NCBI GenBank assembly: GCA_902570125.1
Contig: CACFXK010000002.1
Location: forward strand, 18,380-82,379
Origin: an uncultured Pelagibacteraceae bacterium
GTDB lineage: Bacteria; Pseudomonadota; Alphaproteobacteria; Pelagibacterales; Pelagibacteraceae
Length of the DNA stretch: 64,000 nucleotides
Direction: 5' to 3'
In this document: in pieces, positions 23,318-52,696 of the stretch
How the letters are laid out: the number at the start of each line of letters is the position of its first letter
Numbering within the stretch: position 1 is the stretch's first letter
Made by a program: the position numbers and the translations under genes
The notes under the pieces: model-generated
Databases searched by the model: none
Seen by the model: only the letters and a program-made list of their open reading frames with translations
Told to the model about the DNA's origin: nothing

Positions 23318-24334
23318 CTAATTTTTTTTTAATTTTTCAAATTTTTTTGACTTAACTGATTTTTGTGCAGCTTCTGCTAACATTATAGACTTTCTTCCAT
23401 CTTCAAAAACAGCTCTAGGTTTTATATTTTTTTTGCAAAAGTTTGCAAGGTCAGATAGTTGCAATCTAAAAGCTTCTGCATATCTCTCTATAAAAAAATG
23501 AAGGAGCGGGGATTTATTATTTGTTGAATTTTTTAAAAAGAGATTAGTTTCAGTATCTCTTTTATTATCAGATATCATCATTCCTTTTGTTCCAAAAAGT
23601 TCAACTCTTTGGTCATAACCAAAACTACAATGTCTTGAATTAGTTATAATGCATTGCACTCCTTTTTTCGACTTAAGCACTGTTGTTGCAAGCTCATAGT
23701 CTTTTAATTTATTAAATCTTTGGTCTGATATGTTACTTCCAGTAGCAAATACTGATATAAATTCATCTGAACCTAAGTAATACCTTGCTAAATCAAAATC
23801 ATGTATCATCATATCTTTAAAAATACCTCCAGAACCTTTTAAATAAGATAATGAAGGAGGAGCAGGGTCCCGACTAGTTATAATAATTTTTTCAAGTCTG
23901 CCTATTTTATTTTTTAATAAATTCTTTTTAAGTAAATTATGTCCAGGATCATATCTTCTATTAAAGCCTATTTGAACTTTAGGATTAAGTTTTTTAATTT
24001 TTGTTAATGATGAATTAATTTTTTTTAAATTTAAATCTAGTGGTTTTTCGCAAAAGATTACTTTTTTGTATTTTGCGCCCTTTTCAATAAATTTTAAATG
24101 TGTAGAAGTAGACGAGGCTATAAAAATACATCTAATTTCATTATCTTTAAAAGCTATATCTGGATTGTTTATAGAAATAGAATTAAATTTTTTTGAAACT
24201 TTGTTTGATAGATTCTTATTTAAATCAAAAACATATTTCAATTCAAATTCACTATTTTTTCTTAAATTGTTAGCATGCATCTGGCCAATTCTACCAAGGC
24301 CTAATAGAGCAGTTTTTATTTGATTTTTACCCAT
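23318..24334 (-). CDS. iolG: myo-inositol 2-dehydrogenase
   Basis: GLGRIG, CEKPL, IGFNRRYD, SRDPAPP, SGGIFKDMMIHDFD, NSRHCSFGYDQRVE. Confidence 0.88.
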   Translation of the reverse strand: MGKNQIKTALLGLGRIGQMHANNLRKNSEFELKYVFDLNKNLSNKVSKKFNSISINNPDIAFKDNEIRCIFIASSTSTHLKFIEKGAKYKKVIFCEKPLDLNLKKINSSLTKIKKLNPKVQIGFNRRYDPGHNLLKKNLLKNKIGRLEKIIITSRDPAPPSLSYLKGSGGIFKDMMIHDFDLARYYLGSDEFISVFATGSNISDQRFNKLKDYELATTVLKSKKGVQCIITNSRHCSFGYDQRVELFGTKGMMISDNKRDTETNLFLKNSTNNKSPLLHFFIERYAEAFRLQLSDLANFCKKNIKPRAVFEDGRKSIMLAEAAQKSVKSKKFEKLKKN

Positions 24335-25461
24335 CTTTTTTTTCTATTTGAAACTTTGCATGCATCGATAAATTTTGCAGTTTCCAGTCCTTCGTCCTCA
24401 TTAGGGTAAAAATACCTTTTTTTTACATTATTTTTCAAAGAAGCTGCAAATTCACGATAAATATTTGCAAATGCATCTAAATAACCTTCAGGATGTCCAA
24501 ATTTTAATCTAGAAAATTTTTTAGACAATTCGGCATTAAAAAAACCTCTTTCAATAAATTTAACAGCACCATTAGATGGATTAAGTTTTAAATAGTTTGG
24601 ATCGTTTTGAACCCATTCCAAACTTCCTTTCGTTCCAAATATTCTTATTCGTAATCCGTAAACACCGCCTCTAGCCATCACACTTGTCCAAAACATTCCT
24701 TTAGCTCCATTATTAAAATTAATCATTACTTGAGCATTGTTGTCCATTTTAACTTTATTTGAAACTTGTTTAATATCTGCAAAAATAGTTTTACCTTTTA
24801 AACCTGATATATAAGTTGCCATATGATATGCATGGGACCCAATTTCATTCAGGACCGCTGAAGCTCCAACGATATTTTTGTCTATTTTCCATTTAAACTT
24901 TTTCTTTGCATTTTTTTGAGTGATATTTTCTCCATCTGACCAATCCTGAACATATTCAACATTTATATATTCAACTTTTCCAATTTTACCTTTTTCAACC
25001 AATACTTTTGCTTCTCTAACCATAGGATAAGCAGAATAATTATGTGTCAAAGCATACTTAATTTTTTTATTTGATTTTATTTTTTTAAATAATTTCTTAG
25101 CTTGGGCAAGATTTCCAGCAAATGGTTTATCAGAAATCACATTAATATTTTTATCAATAAATTTTTCAGCAATAATTTGGTGACTTGAAGGAGGTGTCAT
25201 TATAGCCACAACATTAATACCATCTTTTCTTTCCGCTTCTCTTTCAGCCATTTCTCTAAAATTTGAATAGCATCTCTCTTTTAAAATACCTAGGCTTTGA
25301 CCAAAGCTTTTAGATAGTTTTGAATTTCTTGAAAAAACACCAGCAACTATCTCATATTGATTATCAAATCTTGATGAAATTCTATGAACATTACCAATCC
25401 AGGATTTTGGGCCACCTCCAACTACACCAAGCTGGATTTTTTTTCCTTTAATTAATCTCAT
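24316..25461 (-). CDS. Gfo/Idh/MocA oxidoreductase (inositol/polyol-associated subfamily)
   Basis: GVVGGG..SWIG.VH, DKP, EYVQDW, EIGSHAYH, GHPEGYLDAFANIY; start moved to ATG 25461 to remove overlap with iolE. Confidence 0.85.
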   Translation of the reverse strand: MRLIKGKKIQLGVVGGGPKSWIGNVHRISSRFDNQYEIVAGVFSRNSKLSKSFGQSLGILKERCYSNFREMAEREAERKDGINVVAIMTPPSSHQIIAEKFIDKNINVISDKPFAGNLAQAKKLFKKIKSNKKIKYALTHNYSAYPMVREAKVLVEKGKIGKVEYINVEYVQDWSDGENITQKNAKKKFKWKIDKNIVGASAVLNEIGSHAYHMATYISGLKGKTIFADIKQVSNKVKMDNNAQVMINFNNGAKGMFWTSVMARGGVYGLRIRIFGTKGSLEWVQNDPNYLKLNPSNGAVKFIERGFFNAELSKKFSRLKFGHPEGYLDAFANIYREFAASLKNNVKKRYFYPNEDEGLETAKFIDACKVSNRKKRWVKIK

Positions 25462-25492
25462 GATTAAATATATCTTAACAAATAAAAAATTT

Positions 25493-26395
25493 ATGTCAGT
25501 AAAATTAGGTATAGCACCAATTGCTTGGAGTAATGATGACATGCCTGAATTAGGTGGAGATACTCCTTTAGAGCAATGTTTGTCAGAAGCAAGTAAGGCT
25601 GGATATGTTGGTATTGAATCAGGTGGTAAATTCCCAAAAACATCAAACGAATTATTACCAAAGTTAGATAAGTATAACTTAAAATTATGTTCTGGTTGGT
25701 ATAGCGGAAATCTTAGAAAAAATTCTGTTGAACAAGAAAAAAATTTAATTCAAGACCAACTGAAATTATTTAAAGATTGTGAGGCTCCGTGTATCGTTTT
25801 TGCTGAAGTTTTTGGTTCAATACAGGGTGATCCAACAAAAAAACTTTCCAATAGGCCAAAGATGACGGACCAAGAATGGAAAGATTATTGTACAAAAATT
25901 TCTGAACTTGCAAAGTATCTTGAAGATGAAGGTATGCCTTTAGCTTATCACCATCATATGGGTACAGTAATAGAAACAGAAGAAGAAACTATTAGATTAC
26001 TAGAAAACACAGATGATAGTGTAAAATTAACTTTAGATACTGGTCATATGTTATTTGCTAAGGGAAACTCAATTAATATAATTAATAAATTTAAAGAAAG
26101 AGTAATCCACATACACTGCAAAGATATTAGAGAAGAAGTATTAAAAAAAGCCCTTTCTGAAGATTTGAGTTTTAGGGACGCTTTTTTAGAAGGTGCTTTT
26201 ACGGTACCTGGTGATGGGTGTATCGACTACAAACCTCTGTTTGATATTCTAAAAAAAAATAATTATCAAGGTTGGCTTGTCGTAGAGGCTGAACAAGATC
26301 CTAAAAAAGCTAATCCACTTGAGTACGCTATCAAGGGTTACAAATATATTACTGATACTTTAAAGAAATCAAATTTAGAGATTAATAATCTATAA
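25493..26395 (+). CDS. iolE: 2-keto-myo-inositol (myo-inosose-2) dehydratase
   Basis: LGIAPIAWSNDDMPELGG, YHHHMGT, DTGH, HIHCKD, FTVPGDG, VVEAEQDP; start at ATG 25493. Confidence 0.95.
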   Translation: MSVKLGIAPIAWSNDDMPELGGDTPLEQCLSEASKAGYVGIESGGKFPKTSNELLPKLDKYNLKLCSGWYSGNLRKNSVEQEKNLIQDQLKLFKDCEAPCIVFAEVFGSIQGDPTKKLSNRPKMTDQEWKDYCTKISELAKYLEDEGMPLAYHHHMGTVIETEEETIRLLENTDDSVKLTLDTGHMLFAKGNSINIINKFKERVIHIHCKDIREEVLKKALSEDLSFRDAFLEGAFTVPGDGCIDYKPLFDILKKNNYQGWLVVEAEQDPKKANPLEYAIKGYKYITDTLKKSNLEINNL

Positions 26396-27346
26396 TTTTA
26401 CTTTTTTACTGTCTTCAAGTTTACCATCGAAAAAATCAAAAATATTTTGAATAGTTTCTTTTGCCATTCTAGTCATGCATTCCTCAGTGAATGCTGCAGC
26501 ATGAGGACTAAGGAAAACTTTGTCATTTTTTAATAAAGGATTATCAGCCTCTGGAGGCTCTACCTCAAATACATCAATTCCTGCTCCAAAAATCAAATTT
26601 TCATTCAATGCCCTATCTAAATCTTTTTCATTTATAATACCGCCTCTTGCAGCATTTATGATGATGCAGTTTTTTTTCATCGTTTTTAGAAGTTCGTAAT
26701 TTATAATATTTTTAGTTTGATCAGTTAAAGGTATATGGAGTGAGACAGCATCCATGTCTTTAATAGCTTCTGATAAATCTTCAACTTTTTTACCACCCAT
26801 TTTGCTTATTGTTTCTGAGTCTACAAATGGATCGTAAACAAAAACGTTCATTTCAAATCCTAAACATCTTTTAATCAACGCTTTTCCTATTCTTCCAAAT
26901 CCAGCAATAAGAATGTTTTTATCCCAAATCTCTATAGTTTTTGGTAATTTATTTCGTTCAGTAAATTTTCCATTTTTGACTGAATGGTCATACATACTCT
27001 TTCTTTTTGAGATACTTAAAAGCATGAAAAGAACATGTTCTGCAACTGCCACAGCATTTGCTGTTGCGGTTATTGCTACGTCGATGTTTCCTTTTTTACA
27101 GCTATTTAAATCAATATTATCGTAACCAACTCCATGTCTTGAAATTATTTTAAGGTTTTTTGCATTTTCAATTGCCTCAGCAGGTAATATCGAGGTTCTT
27201 AAAGAAACTGCATCTGCATCTACAATTTTTTGTTTCACATTTTCAACACTTAAATCTTCAACAACCTCGTAACTATAGTCGCTATTACTTTTTAATAATT
27301 CCATACCTTTTTCATGAATAGGTTGGACAATGAGAATTTTTTTCAT
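26390..27346 (-). CDS. D-isomer-specific 2-hydroxyacid dehydrogenase (SerA-like, no ACT domain)
   Basis: SRHGVGYDNID, GFGRIG, INAARGG, DVFEVEP, SPHAA. Confidence 0.88.
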   Translation of the reverse strand: MKKILIVQPIHEKGMELLKSNSDYSYEVVEDLSVENVKQKIVDADAVSLRTSILPAEAIENAKNLKIISRHGVGYDNIDLNSCKKGNIDVAITATANAVAVAEHVLFMLLSISKRKSMYDHSVKNGKFTERNKLPKTIEIWDKNILIAGFGRIGKALIKRCLGFEMNVFVYDPFVDSETISKMGGKKVEDLSEAIKDMDAVSLHIPLTDQTKNIINYELLKTMKKNCIIINAARGGIINEKDLDRALNENLIFGAGIDVFEVEPPEADNPLLKNDKVFLSPHAAAFTEECMTRMAKETIQNIFDFFDGKLEDSKKVKL

Positions 27347-27360
27347 AATTTTAAAAAAAA

Positions 27361-28350
27361 TTATATTAGTCTTGCAAGATCTCTTTTACTATTTCTAAAT
27401 GTTGGAAGTGGATATTTAAATGCATACTTTCTTGGAATACATTTATTCTTTGCCTTTTCCCACAAAGCAATCCATTGCTTGTAGTTGTGGATGGTAATAT
27501 TTTTTTTATTTTTACTTCTTACATAAAAATTGGGCAAAGGTTTCCTACCAGATGGGGTTCCAGCTCTATTGTATCTTAAATCAGCGCTAATTCTAAAATC
27601 ATTGGATATATTAGGCAATGAACAGTGAATGGAGTGTTTGTGTAAAATAATAATATCGCCAACATTAGCCTCCAGAAAAACTGGCTTGTAATTATTAAGT
27701 AGTTTACTATCTTTTATTTCTACCTGACCTCTATATCCTGATATATGATTTAATAGTCCCAATTTATTAATTTCTTTTACTGTAATCATGCATCCATTTT
27801 TTTTAGTAGTTTTAGTAAATGGAATCCAAACAGTTACCATATCAGTTAATCTTTGTCCCAAAGATGATAATACTGCTGCATCCTGATGCCATGGAGTTCT
27901 ACCTGAGAGACCATCGTGAACAGAATGTTTAGGTAATTTATTTTCGGGTTGTTTAATTCTTGTATTTTGAACTGGATTTGAGAGAATTTCTGGCCCTAAT
28001 AATTTTTCAACCACATCCAAGATTTTTTTGTGATTAATTAAATTCCATAAAGATTGAGATGCAAAATAATCACTATCTTTTTTCACGTGATCTCTTGGAA
28101 GTCTAGTATTAAAATATTGATCAAGATCGTAAATTTTTAGTTTTGAAATGTATGTGTATTTTTTTTTAAAGCTATATTTAAAAATTTTTTCTTTCAAATG
28201 CTCAGGAGCAAATTTATGAACTAAATTATCCATTACATATTCCATGTCATTTAAAATTGGTTTTAAATCTTTATTGAAATTAAGAACATTTCTTACTCTT
28301 AGGAAGCCATCTCTATCTAAAATACTCTTTAATTTAGTCTTAATTTGCAT
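27361..28350 (-). CDS. PhyH-family Fe(II)/2-oxoglutarate dioxygenase
   Basis: TPWHQD (HxD), VTVWIPF...NGCM, IHCSLPN (distal His), RISADLRY. Confidence 0.85.
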   Translation of the reverse strand: MQIKTKLKSILDRDGFLRVRNVLNFNKDLKPILNDMEYVMDNLVHKFAPEHLKEKIFKYSFKKKYTYISKLKIYDLDQYFNTRLPRDHVKKDSDYFASQSLWNLINHKKILDVVEKLLGPEILSNPVQNTRIKQPENKLPKHSVHDGLSGRTPWHQDAAVLSSLGQRLTDMVTVWIPFTKTTKKNGCMITVKEINKLGLLNHISGYRGQVEIKDSKLLNNYKPVFLEANVGDIIILHKHSIHCSLPNISNDFRISADLRYNRAGTPSGRKPLPNFYVRSKNKKNITIHNYKQWIALWEKAKNKCIPRKYAFKYPLPTFRNSKRDLARLI

Positions 28351-28355
28351 AATTA

Positions 28356-29216
28356 TTAATATTTTAGCAAATAATTCGAATCATGAAAAGATGTAAGCAT
28401 TCTTTTTTTCGTCGCAACAATATGTGGATGATATTCAAGATTTTTATATTTCCATATCACTGGCTTGTTAAGAGCATAACTTCCATAAATAAAAAATCTT
28501 TTTGGACAGTTTTTTTCCTTAAATCTATTTACTCCGTGATAAGAATTTGGAGTAGATTTAAAGAAAATTACACTTCCCTGTTTTGGTGTGAATTCCTTTA
28601 ATTTATCAAGTTCATTAGTCTTAGGAAACCTTCTAAAGCTTTTTCTAGGGTTTTTGTTTACTTTTTTCCTATATAAAGTAAGTGATCCTCCATTTTTTTT
28701 TGGTATGTCGGTTAAATAGATCAAAAAATTATATAGCCTGTTCACATCATCTCTATGTGGTCTCAATCTATATCCTCCTTTAGATACTGAGAAATCAATA
28801 TCTAAATTTAAATTTGGGTTTTTATAATCTTTACCTAGTAGTTTTTTTAGCTCTTGGGAATTTACTTTTCTTTTAAGTGTATATTTTTTTTTATTAAATT
28901 TTTTTGGTTTAAACAAACTTTCCCAAGTATTTGCCTTAAATTCTTTTTTAAATTTTTTATCAATTTTTTTATAAAAGGATTGTGTATTGAAAGTAGCAAA
29001 AAGTTTTTTTGAGATTTTAGAACTTGAGATATATTTGTTGAAATTTTTTGATCCTTTATTAATCCTACTTCTGCCACCCATAATCATATCATCAAAACTT
29101 TTTGAATTAGTTATTTCTTTAATTAAAGAATAACACACTTTTTTACTGATTATTTGTTCTCCAACAATGACTTGGAAGTTTGATTTAATTTTCTTTAGTT
29201 TACTAATTTTCAGCAT
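28356..29216 (-). CDS. 2OG-Fe(II) oxygenase superfamily protein
   Basis: LRPHRD (HxD), NFLIYL..GGSL, NSYHGV (distal His), downstream Arg (KRFFIY). Confidence 0.8.
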   Translation of the reverse strand: MLKISKLKKIKSNFQVIVGEQIISKKVCYSLIKEITNSKSFDDMIMGGRSRINKGSKNFNKYISSSKISKKLFATFNTQSFYKKIDKKFKKEFKANTWESLFKPKKFNKKKYTLKRKVNSQELKKLLGKDYKNPNLNLDIDFSVSKGGYRLRPHRDDVNRLYNFLIYLTDIPKKNGGSLTLYRKKVNKNPRKSFRRFPKTNELDKLKEFTPKQGSVIFFKSTPNSYHGVNRFKEKNCPKRFFIYGSYALNKPVIWKYKNLEYHPHIVATKKRMLTSFHDSNYLLKY

Positions 29217-30161
29217 TTAGCTGTACATGCCCTCTTTTACTTTAATCATTTTGTACATAAGGTCATTTAATGGTGTGGCTATTCCATGTTTTTTTCCTAT
29301 TTTAGACACGGCGCCACTTATGAAATCAATTTCAGTTTTTCTTTTATAAAGCACATCAAAAGCCATTGAAGACTTATTTGTTTGTTTTGAGTCAACAATT
29401 TTATTAAACATAAATAAACACTCATCTTCAGAAACATTAACGCCATCTGCTAAAGCAACGTCTCTTGTTTCTAAAATTATCTTTTTTCCTAAACTTCTAG
29501 AAACGTCGTTGGCATTATTATTTATGTAAAGATCAGTATGATGTAGATCAAAAATAGCTGAAAGTGGGCCTATTGCGGTTAAAGCAAAAAGTTTCATCCA
29601 TTTTCTTTTTTTTACATCCTCAGCAGCAATCATTTCCAAATTATGAGCAGTAAAGGTGTCTGCAATTTCGGTTATTCTATTAGTTATCCCACCATCATAT
29701 TCTCCAATCCAAGAGGGTAGAGAAGCATGATTCATAATATGACCAGGACCTAAGATATTTGATGCTTGAGTTGTTGTTCCTCCGATTACTTTTTCATCGC
29801 CAACAATACTTTTAATTATAGCTTCATGTCCAATTCCATTTTGAAAAGACATAAAAACTGTTTTATCGTTAATAATATTTTTAATACTTTTTAAAGCAGG
29901 CTCTAGAGCTGTTGCTTTACACATCACTATCACAGCATCAACTTTTCCAATTGTAGATGGATCTGATGTTGCTGGTACTTTGATAAATCTATCACCACCA
30001 TGACCATCCATCTTTAGACCATTTTTATTTATTTCATCAACATGCTCTTTCCAAACGTCAATGAGCGTTACATTTAGACCTTTTTCTGCTAGTAGGCCTC
30101 CAAATAGACAACCCATTGCCCCTGCACCAAGAACCGCAACTTTTAAATCTTTATTATTCAT
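29217..30161 (-). CDS. Ketopantoate reductase (PanE/ApbA)-family 2-oxoacid reductase
   Basis: LGAGAMG, FQNGIG, WMKL (catalytic Lys), KSSM, TEIDFISG; substrate-site Asn residues altered. Confidence 0.85.
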   Translation of the reverse strand: MNNKDLKVAVLGAGAMGCLFGGLLAEKGLNVTLIDVWKEHVDEINKNGLKMDGHGGDRFIKVPATSDPSTIGKVDAVIVMCKATALEPALKSIKNIINDKTVFMSFQNGIGHEAIIKSIVGDEKVIGGTTTQASNILGPGHIMNHASLPSWIGEYDGGITNRITEIADTFTAHNLEMIAAEDVKKRKWMKLFALTAIGPLSAIFDLHHTDLYINNNANDVSRSLGKKIILETRDVALADGVNVSEDECLFMFNKIVDSKQTNKSSMAFDVLYKRKTEIDFISGAVSKIGKKHGIATPLNDLMYKMIKVKEGMYS

Positions 30162-30224
30162 TTTTAAAATCGAAATATATTTATGTAAAAAAATTATGCA
30201 ATATATTATGTAACTAATTTATAT

Positions 30225-31193: not shown

Positions 31194-32005
31194 AAAAGAT
31201 TTATACTTGGGCCGCTCAACCTGCTAGCAGAACTCTTACAGTTGATGATCTTAAAAAAGCAAAAGGAAAAAAAAAATTTACTCAAGTCACAGCCAATACA
31301 ATAGATGAAGCTGATGCCGCAGAGAAGGCTGGGTTTGACATGATAATCTGCAATGCTTTTAATGTGAAACAGGTGAGAGAGGGATCAAAAAATCTATTTT
31401 TAACTGCTGCGCTAGTATTAAATAAGTTTGTCACTTCGGAAGATATCATGAGAGGAGCGTTTGAAGCCCTAGAAAATGGAGCTGATGCTGTAATGACACC
31501 TAGAAGTATGAAGATCATAGAAATGCTGGCTAATGAAGATGTTCCAGTTATGGGACATCTTGGTTTAGTTCCAAGAAAATCAACGTGGATTGGTGGTTTA
31601 AGAGCAGTAGGAAAAAATAGTGAAGAGGCACATGAACTTTTTTTAAAATTTAAAAGATTAGAAGATGCAGGAGCTTTTTCTGCTGAATGTGAGGTTATCC
31701 CAGAAAATGTAATGGGAGAAATCTCTAAAAGAACGAATATAGTTACAGTATCTTTAGGTTCAGGAAAGAAAGCTGATGTAATGTACCTGTTCATGGAAGA
31801 CATATGTGGAGATACTTTAAATCCTCCAAGACATTCAAAAGCTTATGGAAATTTATTAAAATTAAAAAATGAAATAAAAGTTGAGAGAGTTCGAGCTCTT
31901 AAGGCATTCAAAAAAGATTCAATGGCAGGAAAATTTCCAGGAAAAAAACAATCTTCAAATTTAAATAAAAAAGAATTCGAGTCTTTTCTTGATAAGCTTG
32001 ATTAA
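31190..32005 (+). CDS. PanB (ketopantoate hydroxymethyltransferase)-like protein, degenerate
   Basis: VPVMGHLGLVP, LEDAGAF, ECEVIP, SLGSG...D retained; GDS, DLPF and KIEGG motifs missing. Confidence 0.8.
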   Translation: MKKIYTWAAQPASRTLTVDDLKKAKGKKKFTQVTANTIDEADAAEKAGFDMIICNAFNVKQVREGSKNLFLTAALVLNKFVTSEDIMRGAFEALENGADAVMTPRSMKIIEMLANEDVPVMGHLGLVPRKSTWIGGLRAVGKNSEEAHELFLKFKRLEDAGAFSAECEVIPENVMGEISKRTNIVTVSLGSGKKADVMYLFMEDICGDTLNPPRHSKAYGNLLKLKNEIKVERVRALKAFKKDSMAGKFPGKKQSSNLNKKEFESFLDKLD

Positions 32006-32793
32006 TAAGTTTCAGATTCTTTTTTGCTTATTGAGCCTTTCATTTTTTCAACAATTGCTTTAGCACCTGCGCTCATAGCTCTTTGATCTGCACCAATAGT
32101 TACAAAGTTAAAACCTTTGTCGATCATTTTTTGTGCGTACTCTGGAGTTCCATTATGAATTCCTGCAAATATATTATTTTTTTTGGCATGCTCTAATATT
32201 CTTAATATTTCTGAATAAGCTTTTGTATCTTCTGCTCTGTCAAACCCAGGCTTTTCTCCTATTGCTAAACTTAAGTCAGCTGGACCAATATATATTCCAT
32301 CTACGCCATCTGTTGACATAATCTCATCTAATTTATCTAATGACTCTTTTGTTTCAATCATAGCTAATTTTAAAATTTCATCATTTGCATGGTCAGCATA
32401 ATCAGCTCCACCATAAATCAATCCTCTAACAGGACCAAAACTTCTATATCCTCTTGGAGGATACATACAAGCTTGAACAAATCTTTCCGCCTCTTCTTTG
32501 TTACTTACCATTGGACATATAATTCCATAACAACCAGCGTCTAAAATTTTCATTATTTGGCCTGGTTCATTCCAATTTACTCTAGCAAGAGGAGTTACAT
32601 CAGTTGATGAAATTGTTTGAAGCATTGGAAGTGCATTTGTGTAATCAACAAGTCCATGTTGCATATCTACAGTTAGAGAGTCCCAACCTTGATGCGCCAT
32701 AACTTCTGCTGATACAGTGCTTGGTATTTGTAACCAACCATTTACAACAGGCTTACCATCAGCCATCATTTGTTTGACTTTATTTTTTCTCAT
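32002..32793 (-). CDS. HpcH/HpaI-family class II pyruvate aldolase (GarL/RhmA-like)
   Basis: VDMQHG, PLARV, ILDAG, CPMV, YPPRGYRSFG, MIET, YIGPADL. Confidence 0.9.
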   Translation of the reverse strand: MRKNKVKQMMADGKPVVNGWLQIPSTVSAEVMAHQGWDSLTVDMQHGLVDYTNALPMLQTISSTDVTPLARVNWNEPGQIMKILDAGCYGIICPMVSNKEEAERFVQACMYPPRGYRSFGPVRGLIYGGADYADHANDEILKLAMIETKESLDKLDEIMSTDGVDGIYIGPADLSLAIGEKPGFDRAEDTKAYSEILRILEHAKKNNIFAGIHNGTPEYAQKMIDKGFNFVTIGADQRAMSAGAKAIVEKMKGSISKKESETY

Positions 32794-34235
32794 TAATAAT
32801 TGAGACCGAAGTGAGTATACTTAACGTTCAAATAATCTTTGATAGCCATTGAACCACCTTCTCTTCCATAACCTGTTTGTTTTATTCCTCCAAAAGGTAC
32901 TTCAGCAAATGCAATTGTTGGATGGTTCACTGCGCATGTTCCAGTTTCCATTTTTTCTGAGACTTTGTGTGCTTTTTCTAAAGAATTAGTGTAAATATAG
33001 CTTGCTAAACCAAGGTCATTATCATTTGCTCTTTCCACAACTTCATCTGTGTCTTTAAAAGTAAGCAATGGAACTAAAGGTCCGAATGGCTCTTCTTTAG
33101 CAATTGTAAAATTATCTTTAACATTGTCAAAAACAGTTGGTTCATAGAAATATCCTTTATTAAAACCAGCTGGTCTCTTTCCCCCACATAAAACTGTTGC
33201 TCCCTCACTTTTAGTTTTTTCTACTAATGCCTCTATTTCATTTAATCTTTTTTCTGTAGTTAAAGGTCCTAGAATTGTATCTTCATCCATTCCGTTACCA
33301 ACTTTCAGTTTAGTAACCTTTTCAACTAATTTTTTAGCAAATTCATCTTTTTTACTTTCATGAATATAAAATCTTGCTGGTGATATACAAACTTGACCAT
33401 TATTCCTAAATTTAGCAGTAATTGCCATGTCGGTTACCTTGTTAATATCTACGTCGTCAAAAACAATGAAAGGTGAATGGCCACTTAATTCCATTGTAAC
33501 TCTTTGGACTTTTTCAGCAGCTTGTTTTAAAATTAGTTTTCCAACTCTTGTTGAACCAGTTATAGAAACCTTTTTTACTATGTCAGATGATATTAATTGA
33601 GATGAGATTTTAGCTGGATCACCAGATAATAAATTTACTACTCCTGGAGGAACGCCCGCATCATTTATAATATTCATAAGTTCCATTACACTACCTGGAG
33701 TAATTACATCAGGCTTACAAATTACTGAGCATCCTGCAGCTAAAGCAGTGGAAATTTTTCTTGAGGATAAAACTATTGGAAAGTTCCATGGTATTAATCC
33801 AGCAACAACTCCAACAGGTTCATATTTTACATACATTCTTGTATGTTCAAATCTACTTTCAACTATCTGACCATAAATTCTTTTTGTTTCTTCAGAGTTC
33901 CACTCAAAAATATCTGCAGCTCCTCCAACTTCCCCTTTTGCTTCTGATAGTGGCTTTCCAACTTCTAATGTTAACCACTTAGCCAAATCATCAGTTCTCT
34001 CTCTCATAAGGTCGGCAATTTTTCTTATAATTTTTGATCTTTGCCAAGGTGGAGTATTTCTCCAAACTTCTAGACCTTTTTCTGCAGACTTAAGTGCTTT
34101 ATTTACATCTTTTTCACCTGCTTTAGATGCTTTACCTAAAACTTCTTCTGTTGCAGGATTTAAAACATCATAAGTTTCATTATTTTGTGATGCTTGCCAT
34201 TTGCCATCAATGAATTGTCCAAATTTGCTATACAT
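32793..34235 (-). CDS. NAD-dependent aldehyde dehydrogenase (SSADH / alpha-ketoglutarate semialdehyde dehydrogenase type)
   Basis: PWNFP, TGSTRVG, TMELSGH, KFRNNGQVCISP, EEPFGP, PFGGIKQTGYGREGG. Confidence 0.9.
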   Translation of the reverse strand: MYSKFGQFIDGKWQASQNNETYDVLNPATEEVLGKASKAGEKDVNKALKSAEKGLEVWRNTPPWQRSKIIRKIADLMRERTDDLAKWLTLEVGKPLSEAKGEVGGAADIFEWNSEETKRIYGQIVESRFEHTRMYVKYEPVGVVAGLIPWNFPIVLSSRKISTALAAGCSVICKPDVITPGSVMELMNIINDAGVPPGVVNLLSGDPAKISSQLISSDIVKKVSITGSTRVGKLILKQAAEKVQRVTMELSGHSPFIVFDDVDINKVTDMAITAKFRNNGQVCISPARFYIHESKKDEFAKKLVEKVTKLKVGNGMDEDTILGPLTTEKRLNEIEALVEKTKSEGATVLCGGKRPAGFNKGYFYEPTVFDNVKDNFTIAKEEPFGPLVPLLTFKDTDEVVERANDNDLGLASYIYTNSLEKAHKVSEKMETGTCAVNHPTIAFAEVPFGGIKQTGYGREGGSMAIKDYLNVKYTHFGLNY

Positions 34236-34290
34236 AATTTTTATTTTGTGGTTTATTAGTTGAATATTTGAAGAGAATATAACTAGAAAA

Positions 34291-36135
34291 ATGAGAAAAA
34301 TAAAGCTTACTTGCGCGCATGCATTGGTTAAACATTTAATAGCTCAGAAAGTCTATATTGATGGTCAAGTTAAGCCTTTGTTTCCTGGTGTATTCGGTAT
34401 TTTTGGACATGGAAATGTAGCCTGTCTAGGACAAGCATTAGAAGAAAATAAAGAGCAACTTCCAACTTTCAGAGGTCATCACGAACAAAATATGGCTTTA
34501 ACAGGTGTTGCTTATGCAAGAGCTAAAAGAAGAAAGCAAATTTTTATTGCAACAAGTTCGGTTGGACCAGGATCTACAAATCTAGTTACAGCATCAGCTG
34601 TAGCAATGAGTAATAGATTGCCAATTTTATTTTTACCTGGAGACACTTACGCAAATAGAATGCCTGATCCTGTATTACAACAAGTGGAACATTTTTCAAA
34701 TCCTGGAATGACTGCTAACGACTCATTTAAACCAGTTACAAAATATTTTGATAGAATTACAAGACCAGAACAAATATTACAGTCACTTCCTCAAGCAATT
34801 CAAATCATGTTAGATCCAGCAGAGTGTGGACCTGCATGTTTATCTTTGTGCCAAGATGTACAAGGTGAAACTTTTGAGTATCCAGAAGAATTTTTTAAAG
34901 AAAGAATTCATTATATAAGAAGACCTAGACCTGACGATTTTCAAATCAAACAAGCAGTAGAAAAAATTAAAAATTCGAAAAAACCTATTATAATTTCTGG
35001 AGGGGGAGTATTTTATTCTGATGCTATGGATGAGTTAGCCAATTTTGCAATTAAACATAATATACCAGTAACTCAAACGGTTATGGGATATTCAACAATG
35101 AAAAAAGATCATTCTCATTTTGTAGGACCAATAGGTGGCTTAGGTGGTAAGGCAGCAAATAACTTAGCAAAAGAAACTGATTTAGCAATCTGCGTAGGAA
35201 CTAAGCTTGCAGATTTTACAACTGGCTCGTGGGCTAATTTTGAAAATCCTAAATTTAAATTAGTTTCAATTAATATAGCAAGACATGATGCTAATAAACA
35301 TTTAGGAGAAGCAGTTATAGGTGATGCAAAAGTTTCCTTAACAGAATTATCTAATGCTGTTGGAGATTGGAAATCATCTGATAGCTGGTATAAAAAATCA
35401 CAAGATGAGTTAAAATCTTGGAATGAATATGTAGATAAAGAAAGTGGCCCAACAAATCAAGAATTGCCAAGTTACGCTCACGCTGTTGGAGCAATTTATA
35501 GGAATTCAGATCCAACTGATATAGCAGTTACAGCAGCCGGAGGTTTGGTCGGAGAAGTTGTTCAAGTGTGGCGTCCAAAAGAGTTAAATACTCATGAAAC
35601 AGAGTGGGGATTTAGTTGCATGAGTTATGAAATTTCTGGTGCTCTTGGTATAAAAATGGCCAATCCTGATAAAGACGTAATTGCTTTTGTTGGCGATGGA
35701 TCATACCTACTTAACAATTCAGATATATATTCTTCAGTAATTACTAATAATAAATTAATAATCATTGTGTGTGATAATGGAGGTCATGCTGTTATAAATA
35801 GACTTCAATTGTTCAAGGGTGGAAAAGAATTTAATTGTTTGTTTAACTCTTCAAATATTCAAAACTCCATAGATGTAAATTTCGCTCAACATGCAGCAAG
35901 TATGGGAGCAAAATCAGAACATGTTTCTAGTATTTCAGAATTAGAAGAAGCATTTAAAAGAGCAAAACAATCAGATGTAACTTATGTTATATCAATTAAA
36001 ACACATAGTTACGAATGGCTTGAAGGATCAGCTTATTGGGAAAGCCCTACACTTGAGATACCAACAACAAAAGAGAACGAGGAAGCATTAAAACTTCACA
36101 AAGAAGGAAAATCAAAACAGAGACAAGGTGTTTAA
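34291..36135 (+). CDS. iolD: 3D-(3,5/4)-trihydroxycyclohexane-1,2-dione acylhydrolase (ThDP-dependent)
   Basis: FGIFGHGNV, TSSVGPGSTN, PDPVLQQVE, NDSFKPV..YFDRITRPEQ, EWGFSCMSYEI, GDGSY...DNGG..VINRLQ. Confidence 0.9.
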   Translation: MRKIKLTCAHALVKHLIAQKVYIDGQVKPLFPGVFGIFGHGNVACLGQALEENKEQLPTFRGHHEQNMALTGVAYARAKRRKQIFIATSSVGPGSTNLVTASAVAMSNRLPILFLPGDTYANRMPDPVLQQVEHFSNPGMTANDSFKPVTKYFDRITRPEQILQSLPQAIQIMLDPAECGPACLSLCQDVQGETFEYPEEFFKERIHYIRRPRPDDFQIKQAVEKIKNSKKPIIISGGGVFYSDAMDELANFAIKHNIPVTQTVMGYSTMKKDHSHFVGPIGGLGGKAANNLAKETDLAICVGTKLADFTTGSWANFENPKFKLVSINIARHDANKHLGEAVIGDAKVSLTELSNAVGDWKSSDSWYKKSQDELKSWNEYVDKESGPTNQELPSYAHAVGAIYRNSDPTDIAVTAAGGLVGEVVQVWRPKELNTHETEWGFSCMSYEISGALGIKMANPDKDVIAFVGDGSYLLNNSDIYSSVITNNKLIIIVCDNGGHAVINRLQLFKGGKEFNCLFNSSNIQNSIDVNFAQHAASMGAKSEHVSSISELEEAFKRAKQSDVTYVISIKTHSYEWLEGSAYWESPTLEIPTTKENEEALKLHKEGKSKQRQGV

Positions 36136-36144
36136 AAACTTTAT

Positions 36145-37302
36145 ATGAATAAAGTTTTTAAAATTGGCTTAATAGGCTGCGGACATATTGCTGAAACATA
36201 TTTTAGAGCTGAAAAATATTTTAATAATATAAAAATTATTAAGTGTGCTGATATTAATATGCAAGCTGCAAAACGTTGTGCATTGAATTATGGGATAAAA
36301 TTTTTAACTGTAAACGAACTTCTTAAAGACAAAGAAATTGAAATTATTTTAAACCTTACAATTCCAAAAGCACATTATCTAATTTCTAAAAAAGCTTTAG
36401 CAAATGGAAAACATGTATACTCTGAAAAGCCTTTAGCAATAAATTTAAAAGATGGAAAAGATTTAATAAAACTTTCAAAGAAAAATAAACTTTATTTAGG
36501 TAATGCTCCTGACACTTTTTTGGGTGGTGGAATACAAAAATCAAAAGAACTCGTTGAAAAAAATTCTATCGGAAAAATAAAATTAGGTAATGCAGTTTTT
36601 GCTTTTCCTGGAATTGAGTCTTATCACCCTAACCCTGAACCTTGGTTTGCAAAAAAAGAAGGAGGTCCTGTTATTGATATGGGACCTTATTATATTACTG
36701 CTTTAGTAAATCTTTTAGGACCTGCAAGAAAAGTAATTAGCACCATCATTCAAGGTCAAAAATATAGGACTATAGGAATAGGACCAAAAAAAGGAAAAAA
36801 ATTTAAGGTAGAATGTCCAACTACATATTTATCCACAATCACTTTTAAAAATAACTCTGTTATAAGATTAACATTATCATTTGATGTAATAGCTCATCAA
36901 AGAAATCATATTGAATTATATGGAGAAAAGGGGTCAATGATTGTTCCAGATCCAAATATGTTTGGCGGATCAGTGTTAATCTGTAATAAATTAGGTGATA
37001 ACTGGAGAGAATTTAAGACCACAAAAATGTCTTTAGGACGTATTAACATTAGAACACAAAGTTCTAGAGCTAACGAAGCGCCAACCAATGCAAACTATCG
37101 AGGAGCTGGATTGTCTGAGATGGCATATTCAATTGAGAACAAAAGAAAACATTTATGTAGTGGTGAAATATCTTTACATGTATTAGAAATTATAACTTCA
37201 ATTATGAAAGCAGCTAAATCTGGAAAATCTGTATCAGTAAATACAAACTGCGCAAAACCAAAAAAGTTTTTAGAAATAGATGCAAAGAAATTACTTAAAT
37301 AA
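36145..37302 (+). CDS. Gfo/Idh/MocA oxidoreductase
   Basis: IGCGHI, NLTIPKAH, YSEKPLA, GNAPDTFLGGG, GGPVIDMGPYY. Confidence 0.88.
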   Translation: MNKVFKIGLIGCGHIAETYFRAEKYFNNIKIIKCADINMQAAKRCALNYGIKFLTVNELLKDKEIEIILNLTIPKAHYLISKKALANGKHVYSEKPLAINLKDGKDLIKLSKKNKLYLGNAPDTFLGGGIQKSKELVEKNSIGKIKLGNAVFAFPGIESYHPNPEPWFAKKEGGPVIDMGPYYITALVNLLGPARKVISTIIQGQKYRTIGIGPKKGKKFKVECPTTYLSTITFKNNSVIRLTLSFDVIAHQRNHIELYGEKGSMIVPDPNMFGGSVLICNKLGDNWREFKTTKMSLGRINIRTQSSRANEAPTNANYRGAGLSEMAYSIENKRKHLCSGEISLHVLEIITSIMKAAKSGKSVSVNTNCAKPKKFLEIDAKKLLK

Positions 37303-37309
37303 ATAGAAA

Positions 37310-38332
37310 GTGAAAAAACATATAGTTATTTCTGATCCATTTCCAAGAAAATTAAACTTAATTTTTTCGAAAAAAAAACTTAAGGAATTAAAATCAAAAT
37401 ATAAATTATTAAAAGCTCCTAAATTAAATAAAAAAAATTTTTATGAAAAAAATATTCATAAAGCTACGTTTATATTGGGTCAACCAGATCTAAATAAAAA
37501 TCTTTTATCAAAAGCTACTAAGTTGAAATGTATTATAAATGTTGAAAGCAATTTTATGGATAATATTGATTATGATTATTGCTTTAAAAAAAAAATTGAT
37601 ATTATTGCTACATCACCAGTTTTTTCAAAGCCTGTTGCTGAAATAGCACTAGGTATGACTTTATCTATATTAAGAAATATACATAATGCTCATTATGATT
37701 TTATAAAAGGTAAAGAAAAATATGGTTTAATGAGTAATTTAAATGCTTCACTTTTGACAAATAAAAACATCGGTCTAGTTGGCTTTGGAGATTTAGCTAA
37801 GGCGCTTTACCCATTGTTGTTACCCTTTACAAAAAACATAAATGTTTATGATCCTTGGGTGCCAAGCAAAATTATTAAGAAGGCTGGCTTTAAATCTATA
37901 AATTTAAATAAAATGTTTAGAAATTGTGAGATTATTTATGTATTGGCTACAATCACAACTAAAAACAAAAATTTAATAAACAAAAAATTATTGAATAAAA
38001 TGAAGCCAAAATCAGTTTTTATTTTAATGAGTAGAGCAGCGATTGTTAACTTTGAAGATCTTAAAAAAAGAATTAAAAAAGGGGATATATATGTTGCAAC
38101 AGACGTATTCCCTGAAGAGCCGGTAAAAAAAAATGATCCAATTAGAAAACTTAAAAATGTATTATTTTCAGCTCATAGAGCTGGAGCTTTAGAACAGGCT
38201 TTTTTTGATATGGGTGAAATTGTTCTGAAAGATATGAGCCTAATTTTGAAAAAAATACCTCCAAAATTCTGCAAAAGGGCTGAAAGAAAAACTGTAAAGC
38301 TATTAGCCTCAAAACCTGTTGCAATTAACTGA
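37310..38332 (+). CDS. D-isomer-specific 2-hydroxyacid dehydrogenase
   Basis: GTG start; GFGDLA, SRAAIV, DVFPEEP, SAHRAG. Confidence 0.85.
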   Translation: MKKHIVISDPFPRKLNLIFSKKKLKELKSKYKLLKAPKLNKKNFYEKNIHKATFILGQPDLNKNLLSKATKLKCIINVESNFMDNIDYDYCFKKKIDIIATSPVFSKPVAEIALGMTLSILRNIHNAHYDFIKGKEKYGLMSNLNASLLTNKNIGLVGFGDLAKALYPLLLPFTKNINVYDPWVPSKIIKKAGFKSINLNKMFRNCEIIYVLATITTKNKNLINKKLLNKMKPKSVFILMSRAAIVNFEDLKKRIKKGDIYVATDVFPEEPVKKNDPIRKLKNVLFSAHRAGALEQAFFDMGEIVLKDMSLILKKIPPKFCKRAERKTVKLLASKPVAIN

Positions 38333-38354
38333 TTTTTTTATATTTTCTTCACTT

Positions 38355-39104: not shown

Positions 39105-39106
39105 TT

Positions 39107-40120: not shown

Positions 40121-40226
40121 TACACTTTTTGGTTGAACTTCAAAAACATTGTCTTTTATAAACAGTTGAATTTTTTTTAAAAATTTAATTAAATTAATTT
40201 TTAATAATTATTAAAGGGGTAAAAAT

Positions 40227-48583: not shown

Positions 48584-48586
48584 TTT

Positions 48587-49489: not shown

Positions 49490-49599
49490 TATTACAAATC
49501 AATTATTGGTTGTATTTTTTTTTCTTGTAGTCTTTTAATAAATCAATCTATAATTGTTTTTTTTAAGTTAACTTAATTTAACAAATAAGAGGGAAATAT

Positions 49600-50856: not shown

Positions 50857-50868
50857 AATACAAAAATT

Positions 50869-50902: not shown

Positions 50903-50926
50903 AATCAAAATTAGAAAATATTTATA

Positions 50927-52694: not shown

Positions 52695-52696
52695 GG

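Follow-up and report, generated by a model that had tools for sequence, protein, structure and literature searches.

The window, by which we mean the whole stretch of 64,000 nucleotides analysed, belongs to an uncultured SAR11 bacterium of the family Pelagibacteraceae. Gene calls were based on curated models from NCBIfam and Pfam, and the genes considered here are as follows:

23318..24334, minus strand: iolG-like inositol 2-dehydrogenase (TIGR04380, 344.5 bits, narrowly below the cut-off of 355)
24316..25542, minus strand: Gfo/Idh/MocA oxidoreductase, hereafter Gfo408 (Pfam GFO_IDH_MocA domains)
25460..26395, plus strand: iolE, inosose dehydratase (TIGR04379, 413 bits, cut-off 290)
26390..27346, minus strand: D-2-hydroxyacid dehydrogenase of 318 aa, PGDH-type short form, hereafter HADH318
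27361..29216, minus strand: PhyH-type and 2OG-Fe(II) oxygenases (PF05721, PF13640)
29217..30161, minus strand: PanE/ApbA-family reductase (TIGR00745 subfamily, 237 bits)
30225..31193, plus strand: DUF1907 protein (PF08925, 197 bits)
31190..32005, plus strand: PanB-like protein (PF02548, 123 bits, under the panB equivalog cut-off)
32002..32793, minus strand: HpcH/HpaI-family class II aldolase (PF03328), divergent from iolD
32793..34235, minus strand: NAD(P)-dependent non-acylating aldehyde dehydrogenase (ALDH), SSADH/KGSADH-like, divergent from iolD
34291..36135, plus strand: iolD, ring-opening ThDP hydrolase (TIGR04377, 792 bits, cut-off 715)
36145..37302, plus strand: Gfo/Idh/MocA oxidoreductase, hereafter Gfo385 (Pfam)
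37310..38332, plus strand: second, accessory D-2-hydroxyacid dehydrogenase, hereafter HADH340 (PF02826)
38319..41159, plus strand: CUT2-type ABC transporter with single-domain ATPase, permease and binding protein (NCBIfam)

The first-pass annotation had placed iolG, iolE, iolD and two additional Gfo/Idh/MocA genes in this interval, and the NCBIfam and Pfam matches bear it out. An iolG-like gene is common to all the SAR11 iol loci examined, and iolD was found in 136 of 273 genomes sampled from the genus. From this gene content, the SAR11 bacterium is predicted to be able to open the inositol ring via IolG, IolE and IolD. Gfo408 is a variable member, present in some SAR11 clusters only; its true start probably lies further downstream, because the 5' end of the ORF overlaps iolE by 83 nt and the family alignments begin at residue 36. 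Gfo385 lies directly 3' of iolD in 10 of 10 SAR11 loci (65-85% identity). In genome G608, HADH340 is found together with iolD and the corresponding ABC transporter, in the order iolD, HADH340, ATPase (80%), permease (75%) and SBP (65%). The transporter found next to iolG in minimal clusters was not detected in the genome containing the window, and the CUT2-type transporter is likely to be the cyclitol importer of this genome. HADH340 and this transporter are probably part of the iol system, with accessory and uptake functions, respectively.

The lower half of the textbook pathway was sought in the whole genome (1.27 Mb in 38 contigs, 86.5% complete). No IolB match was obtained with TIGR04378 or PF04962, no DUF2090 was found in profile searches and nothing exceeded the cut-off for IolC, which stands at 300 bits, whereas the top PfkB matches reached 93 and 90. 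Neither iolB nor iolC is therefore found elsewhere in the assembly, and their absence from the window, as previously reported, holds. The sole PfkB gene of the window, at 41699-42613, had been called ribokinase-like and is a ribokinase (TIGR02152, 312.9 bits, cut-off 299.65). The reported lack of IolA applies to the window but not to the genome, which encodes an MmsA/IolA homologue outside the window, at G000:C1:121235-122668 (TIGR01722, 699.6 bits, cut-off 448.5). Likewise, no KduI/IolB above the cut-off, no DUF2090 and no IolC were found in 31 iolD-bearing relatives, 20 of which are single-contig genomes with a completeness of 97-99%, and the control genomes were positive in these searches. 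Incompleteness is thus not the cause, and the absence of IolB, IolC and DUF2090 is confirmed not to be an assembly artefact.

The genes linked to iolD were compared in a set of 46 high-quality congeneric genomes, 26 with and 20 without iolD. Orthologues of HADH318 and of the HpcH aldolase were both present in 26/26 iolD-positive and 0/20 iolD-negative genomes. In the three SAR11 genera with loci examined, the conserved core consists of iolG, iolE, HADH318, HpcH, ALDH, iolD and Gfo385. An operon iolG-ALDH-HpcH-HADH(-Gfo), divergent from iolD-iolE, was recovered in G479, G771, G569 (which lacks IolB) and G482, with variants of the operon in G510 and G784; weak Gfo385 homologues close it in G479, G771 and G510. 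At least four alphaproteobacterial families other than that of SAR11 carry this iolG-ALDH-HpcH-HADH operon or its variants. In G453 and G519, an XylB-like SDR sugar 1-dehydrogenase stands beside HpcH, with no close ALDH orthologue there, an arrangement that fits with C1 oxidation as a step of the pathway. Among 52 iolD-bearing Alphaproteobacteria, 18 had no IolB match, and the aldolase subfamily was present in 10 of these 18. Several non-SAR11 genomes with the module retain iolB and iolC-DUF2090 elsewhere; the module may therefore be a parallel branch in these genomes, rather than a replacement. A non-phosphorylating lower route built from the neighbours of iolD, as suggested in the first-pass annotation, is most likely in view of the co-occurrence of HpcH and HADH318 and the operons of other families, but DUF1907, which had been included in it, is not a conserved part.

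The HpcH aldolase falls under the equivalog cut-offs for HpaI and GarL. Its nearest solved structure is SwHKA (6R62, 206 bits; HpaI scores about 140 bits), a hydroxyketoacid aldolase from Sphingomonas wittichii that uses hydroxypyruvate as nucleophile (PMC10099721), as is proposed for the window aldolase. The active-site His, Ser, Glu and Asp (H44, S116, E145 and D171 in the naming of PMC10099721) and the conserved Arg are all present. The two enzymes differ at the aromatic residue F210, credited with the hydroxypyruvate preference of SwHKA (PMC10099721): its equivalent is His across the whole SAR11 aldolase clade and nearly all alphaproteobacterial relatives. As SwHKA has no assigned natural role, it sets no precedent for a pathway.

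HADH318 has the GxGxxG motif and the Arg/Glu/His triad, its nearest solved structures are 1WWK and McyI, and it adjoins HpcH in the iol operons of other families. PGDH-type enzymes and McyI act in the oxidative direction. The ALDH retains the catalytic Glu (MELSGH) and Cys (GQVCIS), is closest to dehydrogenases of omega-carboxy aldehydes and is the most SSADH-like ALDH of its genome; it is also the best match in that genome for the ALDHs within the iol operons of other families (42-59% identity). It is, however, a core gene, with orthologues of 74-79% identity in 46/46 congeners, including the 20 without iolD, and it heads an SDR-ROK-sugar ABC array in two of five iolD-negative genomes examined. 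That it stands beside iolD in SAR11 may thus be due in part to the site of the island. The ALDH and HpcH reading frames overlap at the stop of the former and the start of the latter; in seawater metatranscriptomes, contigs of four studies span the whole interval and those of two runs bridge the ALDH/HpcH junction. These observations lend weak support to co-transcription.

Taken together, we consider it an evenly balanced proposition that the window holds a variant inositol catabolic cluster, with a textbook upper half yielding 5-deoxy-D-glucuronate as the expected product of IolG, IolE and IolD, joined to an ATP-free lower half. Enzyme families and gene linkage give an even chance that IolB, IolC and IolJ/DUF2090 are replaced by oxidative enzymes encoded next to iolD. 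The ALDH, translationally coupled to HpcH, is proposed as a 5-deoxyglucuronate dehydrogenase that would oxidise C1 to give 5-deoxy-D-glucarate; alternatively, a Gfo-type or SDR sugar dehydrogenase might do so via a lactone. The PGDH/McyI-like HADH318, as a putative 5-deoxyglucarate 2-dehydrogenase, would oxidise the new 2-hydroxy acid end to 2-oxo-3,4-dihydroxy-adipate, although it might act as a hydroxypyruvate reductase and leave formation of the 2-oxo group to a different enzyme. The HpcH-family metal aldolase would then cut C3-C4, releasing hydroxypyruvate and malonate semialdehyde, and the latter would be converted to acetyl-CoA by the MmsA/IolA homologue whose gene lies outside the window. 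Such a cleavage would parallel that by IolJ in the canonical pathway, the phosphate ester being exchanged for a carboxylate and DHAP for hydroxypyruvate. Each step (aldehyde to acid, 2-hydroxy to 2-oxo acid, aldol cleavage of a 4-hydroxy-2-oxo acid) would prepare the substrate of the next family, a logic that speaks for the model. Among the points against it, the iol-linked aldolases form no single resolved clade, and the fate of hydroxypyruvate is unexplained by the genes found. Searches of five SAR11 genomes detected glycerate kinase of neither class I nor class II, and no consistent class-V (AGXT/SgaA/SerC-type) aminotransferase was found. We found no paper describing the route, and none mentioning 5-deoxyglucarate.

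The genes for the PanE-like protein, the two Fe/2OG oxygenases, DUF1907 and the PanB-like protein form a block inserted between HpcH and HADH318. The PanE/ApbA-family gene heads an operon ending in HADH318, and the DUF1907 and PanB-like frames share 4 nt at the DUF1907 stop. DUF1907 is present in 22/26 iolD-positive and 0/20 iolD-negative congeners, and lies 0.5-1.4 kb from HpcH in genomes with both positions listed. The insertion was missing from minimal SAR11 clusters of the same genus and from the four loci inspected in two further SAR11 genera, and the non-SAR11 modules did not show it either. It is an accessory insertion, confined to some members of a single SAR11 genus, and lies outside the conserved lower route. 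The protein is a full-length homologue of 1XCR (E 3e-36), with conservation of the Zn histidines and the equivalent of H217; the human DUF1907 protein, C11orf54, is a beta-keto-L-gulonate decarboxylase (PMC12337341). A main route of C1 reduction, beta-carbon oxidation and decarboxylation by DUF1907, as in the animal glucuronate-xylulose pathway and as offered in the first-pass annotation, would draw on this metal site, on the restriction of DUF1907 within the genus to iolD-positive genomes, where it is nested in the island, and on the adjoining PanE-like dehydrogenase/reductase. It is nonetheless very unlikely. DUF1907 is missing in four of the 26 closed iolD-positive congeners and in the other loci named above, all of which are likewise devoid of IolB/IolC or have the ALDH-HpcH-HADH genes, so that a patchily present insertion cannot explain genomes without iolB and iolC in general; the expected product would be a 1-deoxy-pentulose, with no evident follow-up enzyme here, and the 2-deoxy substrate would lack the C2 oxygen contacted by the human enzyme (PMC12337341). 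In this genome, it may operate as an accessory branch.

Three further readings were weighed. The pathway may be truncated, the cell doing no more than oxidising and opening the ring, to gain reducing power or for detoxification, and excreting the resulting 5-deoxyglucuronate or 5-deoxyglucarate, with HpcH and HADH318 serving another sugar acid that merely shares the island. This is unlikely: the missing hydroxypyruvate sink, the independence of ALDH from iolD, the many HpcH-HADH pairs of other Alphaproteobacteria that are not beside iolD and the packing of unrelated modules into SAR11 islands would all accord with it, but HpcH and HADH318 strictly follow iolD in the congeners, unrelated families have operons in which these genes are flanked by iolG and the transporter, and a streamlined genome would be unlikely to maintain at least six genes if their product led nowhere. 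It is also rather improbable that a phosphorylative route has been assembled from non-homologous parts, in which Gfo385, with a hydroxyacid or Gfo enzyme, would isomerise 5-deoxyglucuronate to 2-deoxy-5-keto-gluconate by reduction and then oxidation, a ROK kinase (48587-49489) standing in for IolC, and class II FBA, a housekeeping enzyme, for IolJ. This scheme would give no function to HpcH and HADH318, the two genes strictly linked to iolD, the non-SAR11 modules showed no ROK, and we know of no ROK kinase acting on a keto-deoxy acid. The kinase is present in 26/26 iolD-positive genomes and minimal clusters hold it in an iolD-Gfo385-ROK or iolG-transporter-ROK array, with Gfo385 always after iolD; however, orthologues also occur in 6/20 iolD-negative genomes, within a sugar ABC array in both of those examined (G013 and G101). 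Finally, a canonical pathway with iolB and iolC merely overlooked because of gaps in the assembly or extreme divergence is barely credible. The genome is just 86.5% complete and some IolB homologues of other Alphaproteobacteria fall under the curated cut-off, but permissive KduI/IolB, DUF2090 and IolC searches of the 20 single-contig, cluster-bearing congeners were blank above the cut-off, with positive controls.

The oxidative route proposed here can be set against several known systems. The alternative inositol pathway of Thermotoga maritima (IolG, IolM, IolN and IolO) dispenses with IolE and IolD and ends in 5-keto-L-gluconate and tagaturonate. It resembles the proposed route in avoiding IolB/IolC/IolJ and in its oxidised, non-phosphorylated acid sugars, but no counterparts of the enzymes particular to it were seen here, save for a weak IolO-model match inside iolE. 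The animal glucuronate-xylulose pathway also disposes of inositol carbon, and the full-length DUF1907 homologue, with its metal site kept, lies inside an inositol catabolic island; however, neither MIOX nor L-gulonate 3-dehydrogenase has an identified homologue here, and the DUF1907 block is confined as described above. Non-phosphorylative routes with HpcH-family aldolases are known for GarL, in the use of glucarate and galactarate, and for HpaI with succinate-semialdehyde dehydrogenase, in homoprotocatechuate degradation. These share with the proposed route a class II pyruvate-type aldolase, an SSADH-like ALDH, C6/C7 dicarboxylic 2-oxo acids and the absence of ATP expenditure. In them, a dehydratase makes the 2-oxo-3-deoxy substrate and pyruvate is released, whereas the window has a conserved 2-hydroxyacid dehydrogenase in the absence of a conserved dehydratase, with hydroxypyruvate as the predicted C3 product. 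The canonical route is that of B. subtilis (IolG-IolE-IolD-IolB-IolC-IolJ-IolA), with iolCDEB and IolC-DUF2090 in the proteobacterial system (PMC9007349). The window shares with it an IolE and an IolD meeting curated equivalog models, an IolG narrowly under its own, the same expected intermediate and, as a likely common end, malonate semialdehyde and MmsA/IolA. In this genome and its closed relatives, which lack IolB, IolC and DUF2090, phosphorylated intermediates are not expected, and ALDH, the D-2-hydroxyacid dehydrogenase and the HpcH aldolase stand in the SAR11 cluster instead. If the proposed route is correct, SAR11 would possess an ATP-free branch of inositol breakdown, combining the upper half of the known pathway with a different lower half.

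The canonical upper pathway of inositol breakdown (IolG, IolE and IolD) was present in the window according to family models. Family scans recovered every gene named in the first-pass annotation (iolG, iolE, iolD, two Gfo/Idh/MocA genes, the aldehyde dehydrogenase, the HpcH aldolase, the hydroxyacid dehydrogenases and DUF1907) and likewise identified the sole PfkB gene of the window as a ribokinase. The genes concerned are listed below.

23318-24334, minus strand: iolG-like gene (TIGR04380, 344.5 bits, marginally under the cut-off of 355)
24316-25542, minus strand: Gfo408, Gfo/Idh/MocA gene
25460-26395, plus strand: iolE (TIGR04379, 413 bits; cut-off 290)
26390-27346, minus strand: HADH318, D-2-hydroxyacid dehydrogenase gene
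30225-31193, plus strand: DUF1907 gene
32002-32793, minus strand: HpcH aldolase gene
32793-34235, minus strand: aldehyde dehydrogenase (ALDH) gene
34291-36135, plus strand: iolD (TIGR04377, 792 bits; cut-off 715)
36145-37302, plus strand: Gfo385, Gfo/Idh/MocA gene
37310-38332, plus strand: HADH340, D-2-hydroxyacid dehydrogenase gene

The iolE gene stands alone, and the others form the operons Gfo408-iolG; PanE-like-2OG oxygenase-PhyH-HADH318; DUF1907-PanB-like (4-nt overlap); ALDH-HpcH (1-nt overlap), divergent from iolD; and iolD-Gfo385-HADH340-ABC transporter-FucU-ribokinase. The ALDH-iolD intergenic region (49-95 bp) contained no regulatory motif conserved across genera. The longest ORF for Gfo408 (24316-25542) shares 83 nt with the start of the divergent iolE; its family alignments set in only at residue 36, and the homologue in genome G163 has 377 aa, so the true start probably lies downstream.

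The first-pass annotation had the inositol route ending at IolD in the window, and whole-genome profile searches extended this finding, as neither IolB nor IolC/DUF2090 was found elsewhere in the source genome (1.27 Mb, 38 contigs, 86.5% complete, G+C content of about 30%). There was no match to TIGR04378 or PF04962 for IolB and none to DUF2090, and the best IolC matches (93 and 90 bits; cut-off 300) were the ribokinase and a generic PfkB kinase. The latter, on contig 8 and adjoining endonuclease III, was rejected as a candidate IolC. Because this assembly is incomplete, the search was repeated on 31 iolD-positive relatives (20 single-contig, 97-99% complete), with positive matches obtained in control genomes. 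These relatives had no KduI/IolB above the cut-off (sole match 11.8 bits, E 0.083), no DUF2090 and no IolC at E≤1e-30. The closed genomes rule out loss of these genes through an assembly artefact, and the absence of IolB, IolC and DUF2090 is thus a property of the lineage. The absence of IolA, also noted in the first pass, holds for the window only: an MmsA/IolA homologue lies elsewhere in the genome (contig C1, 121235-122668; TIGR01722, 699.6 bits; cut-off 448.5), and the textbook end of the pathway from malonate semialdehyde is therefore available. Within the order, iolD was found in 163 of 401 sampled genomes, a tally that takes in one unpublished genome (G111), on which no individual conclusion depends. 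It was detected in 136/273 genomes of the same genus and in 20/36, 5/7 and 1/1 genomes of three others, and in none of the 60 genomes sampled from a second family.

Regions of 36 kb around iolD were taken from ten SAR11 genomes of three genera. A core of iolG, iolE, HADH318, HpcH, ALDH, iolD and Gfo385 was common to all ten loci, and most of them also had a ROK kinase, as well as a CUT2 ABC transporter adjoining iolG. Co-occurrence was assessed in 46 high-quality congeners, 26 with and 20 without iolD. Orthologues of HpcH (≥77% identity) and HADH318 (≥68% identity) were present in 26/26 iolD-positive and 0/20 iolD-negative genomes, and these two genes are the only ones strictly linked to iol within SAR11. 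DUF1907 was found in 22/26 and 0/20 genomes, respectively. The case for the ROK kinase (26/26 and 6/20) as an iol-specific kinase was weakened by its orthologues in the six iolD-negative genomes, which lay in a sugar ABC array in both cases examined.

The ALDH (74-79% identity) was rejected as an iol-specific marker because it was present in all 46 congeners (26/26 and 20/20); it is a core gene that borders a variable region. With respect to the neighbour genes they share, the iolD-negative loci examined and the iolD-positive clusters have it in opposite orientations. In two (G013 and G101) of the five iolD-negative genomes examined (loci L070-L074), ALDH headed an array of ALDH, SDR, ROK and sugar ABC genes, of which the SDR-ROK-sugar ABC genes correspond to 47834-55605 of the window. 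This comparison implies that about 13.6 kb, from iolD to the TTT transporter genes, was inserted in the window and that ALDH was inverted. The protein has the catalytic Glu and Cys, its nearest relatives are dehydrogenases of omega-carboxy aldehydes, and it is the most SSADH-like ALDH of its genome; its scores against the GabD models TIGR01780 (505.9; cut-off 646.35) and PRK11241 (472.4; cut-off 828) were both under the thresholds.

The aldolase matched PF03328 with 108.5 bits but fell short of the equivalog models for HpaI (176.9; cut-off 368.8), GarL (148.9 and 153.3; cut-offs 406.75 and 393) and RhmA (114.2; cut-off 441). The closest solved structure was that of the Sphingomonas wittichii hydroxyketoacid aldolase SwHKA (PDB 6R62; 206 bits), HpaI scoring 140 bits. 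The motifs QH, R, RSFGP, IET and PADL aligned with H44, R, S116, E145 and D171 of SwHKA, and the metal ligands (Glu, Asp) and catalytic Arg and His of the HpcH/HpaI class II aldolase family are kept. SwHKA has been crystallised with hydroxypyruvate and employed for its hydroxypyruvate activity, and the aromatic F210, in place of a conserved Leu, has been credited with hydroxypyruvate binding (PMC10099721). This residue differs in the window aldolase (His213), and His was found in 29 of 30 related aldolases aligned, the remaining one having Gln. The HpcH tree, in which deep nodes were unresolved, placed the iol-linked members in about five groups, leading to rejection of a single isofunctional iol clade. 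The closest relatives of HADH318 were PGDH-type enzymes and McyI, and its sequence contains the Arg/Glu/His triad.

The module was also found outside SAR11. In a class-wide sample of 401 Alphaproteobacteria, the aldolase subfamily occurred in 77 genomes besides that of the window, and iolD in 52. Two members of one family (G479 and G771) had iolE-iolD divergent from iolG-ALDH-HpcH-HADH(-Gfo), an arrangement shared by representatives of a second family (G569, with no IolB match) and a third (G482), by G510 without the ALDH, and, in a looser version, by a member of a fourth family (G784). In G554, which has neither IolB nor DUF2090, ALDH-iolG-iolG was divergent from iolD-iolE and the aldolase lay elsewhere, and in G453 and G519, both without IolB, HpcH adjoined an XylB-like SDR sugar 1-dehydrogenase near iolD. 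No IolB match at all was obtained for 18 of the 52 iolD-positive genomes, and 10 of these 18 had the aldolase, as did 14 of the 34 with IolB; the module is thus common in either role, replacement or parallel branch. The iolB gene is kept elsewhere in G479, G784, G482, G510 and G771, iolC-DUF2090 was confirmed elsewhere in G479 and G784, and G482 and G510 have extra iolD copies. Flank annotation showed the non-SAR11 operons to end at unrelated genes: no glycerate kinase or MmsA was found there, only transporters, RpiR, SDR, AKR, Amidohydro_2 and unrelated genes. The G569 cluster includes an RpiR regulator, a transporter, an SDR, an AKR and a protein of the Amidohydro_2 family, which includes sugar lactonases. 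Eight of the 18 IolB-less iolD-positive genomes, five of them at least 90% complete, also lacked the HpcH-subfamily aldolase, and further ways to finish the inositol pathway may exist.

In 5-deoxy-D-glucuronate, the product of IolD, C1 is an aldehyde, C2-C4 bear hydroxyls, C5 is a methylene and C6 a carboxylate. The minimal conserved set comprises ALDH, a D-specific 2-hydroxyacid dehydrogenase and a class II aldolase, with IolE as the only conserved dehydratase. A class II aldolase needs a 4-hydroxy-2-oxo acid as its substrate, and the functional group needed by each enzyme family suggests the order ALDH, HADH318, HpcH. ALDH would convert 5-deoxyglucuronate to 5-deoxyglucarate, HADH318 would oxidise the D-configured 2-hydroxy acid end of the latter to a 2-oxo-3,4-dihydroxy acid (2-oxo-3,4-dihydroxyadipate), and HpcH would cleave this compound between C3 and C4 to hydroxypyruvate and malonate semialdehyde, in what would be the IolJ reaction with a carboxylate replacing the phosphate ester. 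We infer the whole of this mechanism from enzyme families and the conserved gene set, and we put it forward tentatively, as a possibility somewhat short of probable, that this carboxylate-for-phosphate route serves inositol degradation in SAR11 and in several further lineages of Alphaproteobacteria. A literature search returned no paper on 5-deoxyglucarate and nothing relevant on SAR11 inositol catabolism or an HpcH/hydroxypyruvate inositol route.

The assignment of ALDH in SAR11 is less secure than its position suggests. The oxidation at C1 could equally be due to Gfo385, or to an SDR acting via a lactone; a lactonase and a beta-hydroxyacid dehydrogenase lie within the iol cluster of one SAR11 genus, and the SDR adjoining HpcH in G453 and G519 is of a sugar 1-dehydrogenase type. 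The ALDHs embedded in non-SAR11 iol operons display 42-59% identity to the window ALDH, versus no more than 34% for the other ALDHs of its own genome. HADH318, for its part, could be a hydroxypyruvate reductase rather than a 2-dehydrogenase, but the minimal operons of G569 and G482 would then have no enzyme making the 2-oxo group. Under the carboxylate-for-phosphate route, no sink for the C3 product, hydroxypyruvate, was found among class I and II glycerate kinases and class-V aminotransferases: PF02595 and PF05161 gave no match in five SAR11 genomes, the PF00266 matches of the source genome were only SufS, sugar aminotransferases, HisC and cystathionine lyase, and an extra class-V member was present in only two of five closed genomes, and was thus not consistent. 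Reduction of hydroxypyruvate to glycerate has been predicted for some islands in a SAR11 pangenome study (PMC11796062).

The first-pass annotation had suggested that a non-phosphorylating lower route may be built from the interleaved genes, DUF1907 among them. ALDH, HpcH and HADH318 do belong to the conserved core of the ten SAR11 loci, whereas the DUF1907 block is an insertion between HpcH and HADH318 (PhyH, 2OG oxygenase, PanE-like, DUF1907 and PanB-like) present in the source genome, G267, G304 and G029, but not in the minimal clusters of G007, G031 and G065 or in four loci of two other genera. DUF1907 lay 0.5-1.4 kb from HpcH where both positions were listed. Within the genus, this block, which lies inside the iol island, occurs only alongside iolD; one insertion passed on together with the island may account for the association. 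The window protein (PF08925, 197 bits) keeps the EHTH and HYH zinc histidines and the equivalent of H217; R263 aligns with an indel, two residues from an Arg. The human DUF1907 protein is a beta-keto-L-gulonate decarboxylase (PMC12337341, PMC12435205), and the window protein is probably a beta-keto-acid decarboxylase. In the insertion variant, transcription of HADH318 behind the PanE-like, 2OG oxygenase and PhyH genes suggests co-regulation with them; the idea that the block adds a decarboxylative side branch, with modified cyclitols as its substrates, is speculation.

The iolG-adjacent transporter of the minimal clusters was not found in the source genome. In G608, the gene order is iolD, HADH340, ATPase (80% identity), permease and SBP, such that HADH340 and the transporter travel with iolD in a streamlined lineage. 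Taken together, these two observations make the ABC transporter at 38319-41159 the likely cyclitol importer of the source genome, despite the FucU-like gene and ribokinase downstream. The ATPases of both iol-linked CUT2-type transporters (38319-39104; locus L011, 10762-11553) are single-domain proteins of 261-264 aa whose alignment to the 501-aa RbsA model is confined to its first half; in a normal CUT2 ATPase, two nucleotide-binding domains are fused. In G430 and G608 (loci L067-L069; small genomes of 1.4 and 1.6 Mb), iolD displays 68-69% identity to that of SAR11, an HADH318-like gene is divergent, and the sole IolB-model matches are sub-threshold (152-168 bits; cut-off 205).

Other genes were noted in and around these clusters. 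In minimal SAR11 clusters of three genera, an ORF of 166-169 aa lies between HADH318 and iolE (L011, 6098-6598; L028, 6783-7292; G158; G065); it has an N-terminal hydrophobic segment, several Cys and no Pfam family, resembling a membrane-anchored protein, and has no homologue in the source genome. The beta-hydroxyacid dehydrogenase and SMP-30-type lactonase of G163 lie between iolG and the transporter (L028, 10377-12094); their homologues in the source genome (60% and 54% identity) are located at and just past the window end (C2, 82301-83161, starting at window position 63922, and 85939-86790). A GarD/UxaA-type dehydratase homologue (56511-58016; galactarate dehydratase model, 372 bits; cut-off 731) and an adjoining 294-aa ORF without an NCBIfam match (55598-56482) could be another sugar-acid module of the same island.

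In six seawater metatranscriptome runs, 35-49% of sampled words from a 9.7 kb core stretch were recovered. Contigs from four runs of four studies covered 29 or 30 of 30 bins of 23318-38332 per run at ≥90% identity, and contigs from two runs bridged the ALDH/HpcH junction. Such contigs neither prove transcription nor rank genes, and give weak support for expression of the interval.

Inositols serve commonly as osmolytes in algae and plants, no heterotroph of the surface ocean is more abundant than SAR11, and the cluster is carried by about half of the SAR11 species sampled. If correct, the proposed route would be a new catabolic pathway in which two or three enzyme functions are also new (5-deoxyglucuronate dehydrogenase, 5-deoxyglucarate 2-dehydrogenase and a hydroxypyruvate-releasing aldolase), and would provide the first natural function for SwHKA-type aldolases. 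SAR11 would convert an algal osmolyte to acetyl-CoA and a C3 hydroxy acid without ATP, and another phosphorylative sugar pathway would have an oxidative, kinase-free twin, suited to a cell with very little ATP and very few genes to spare. The route would also correct metabolic models of carbon turnover in the sea, and would explain the scoring of these bacteria as non-users in surveys demanding iolB/iolC (PMC9430895).

The upper half of the canonical iol pathway is the same in the window, whereas IolB, IolC and DUF2090 were not found in the source genome. The Thermotoga inositol route, one of the known variants, does not match this cluster. The known variation between IolJ and DUF2090 aldolases (PMC9007349) does not match it either. 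A large survey required three or more of iolB, iolC, iolD and iolE for an iol cluster (PMC9430895), and would thus have missed these genomes. The cluster of the window is a real, widespread and uncharacterised variant of the known inositol pathway, for which the chemistry proposed is specific and testable.
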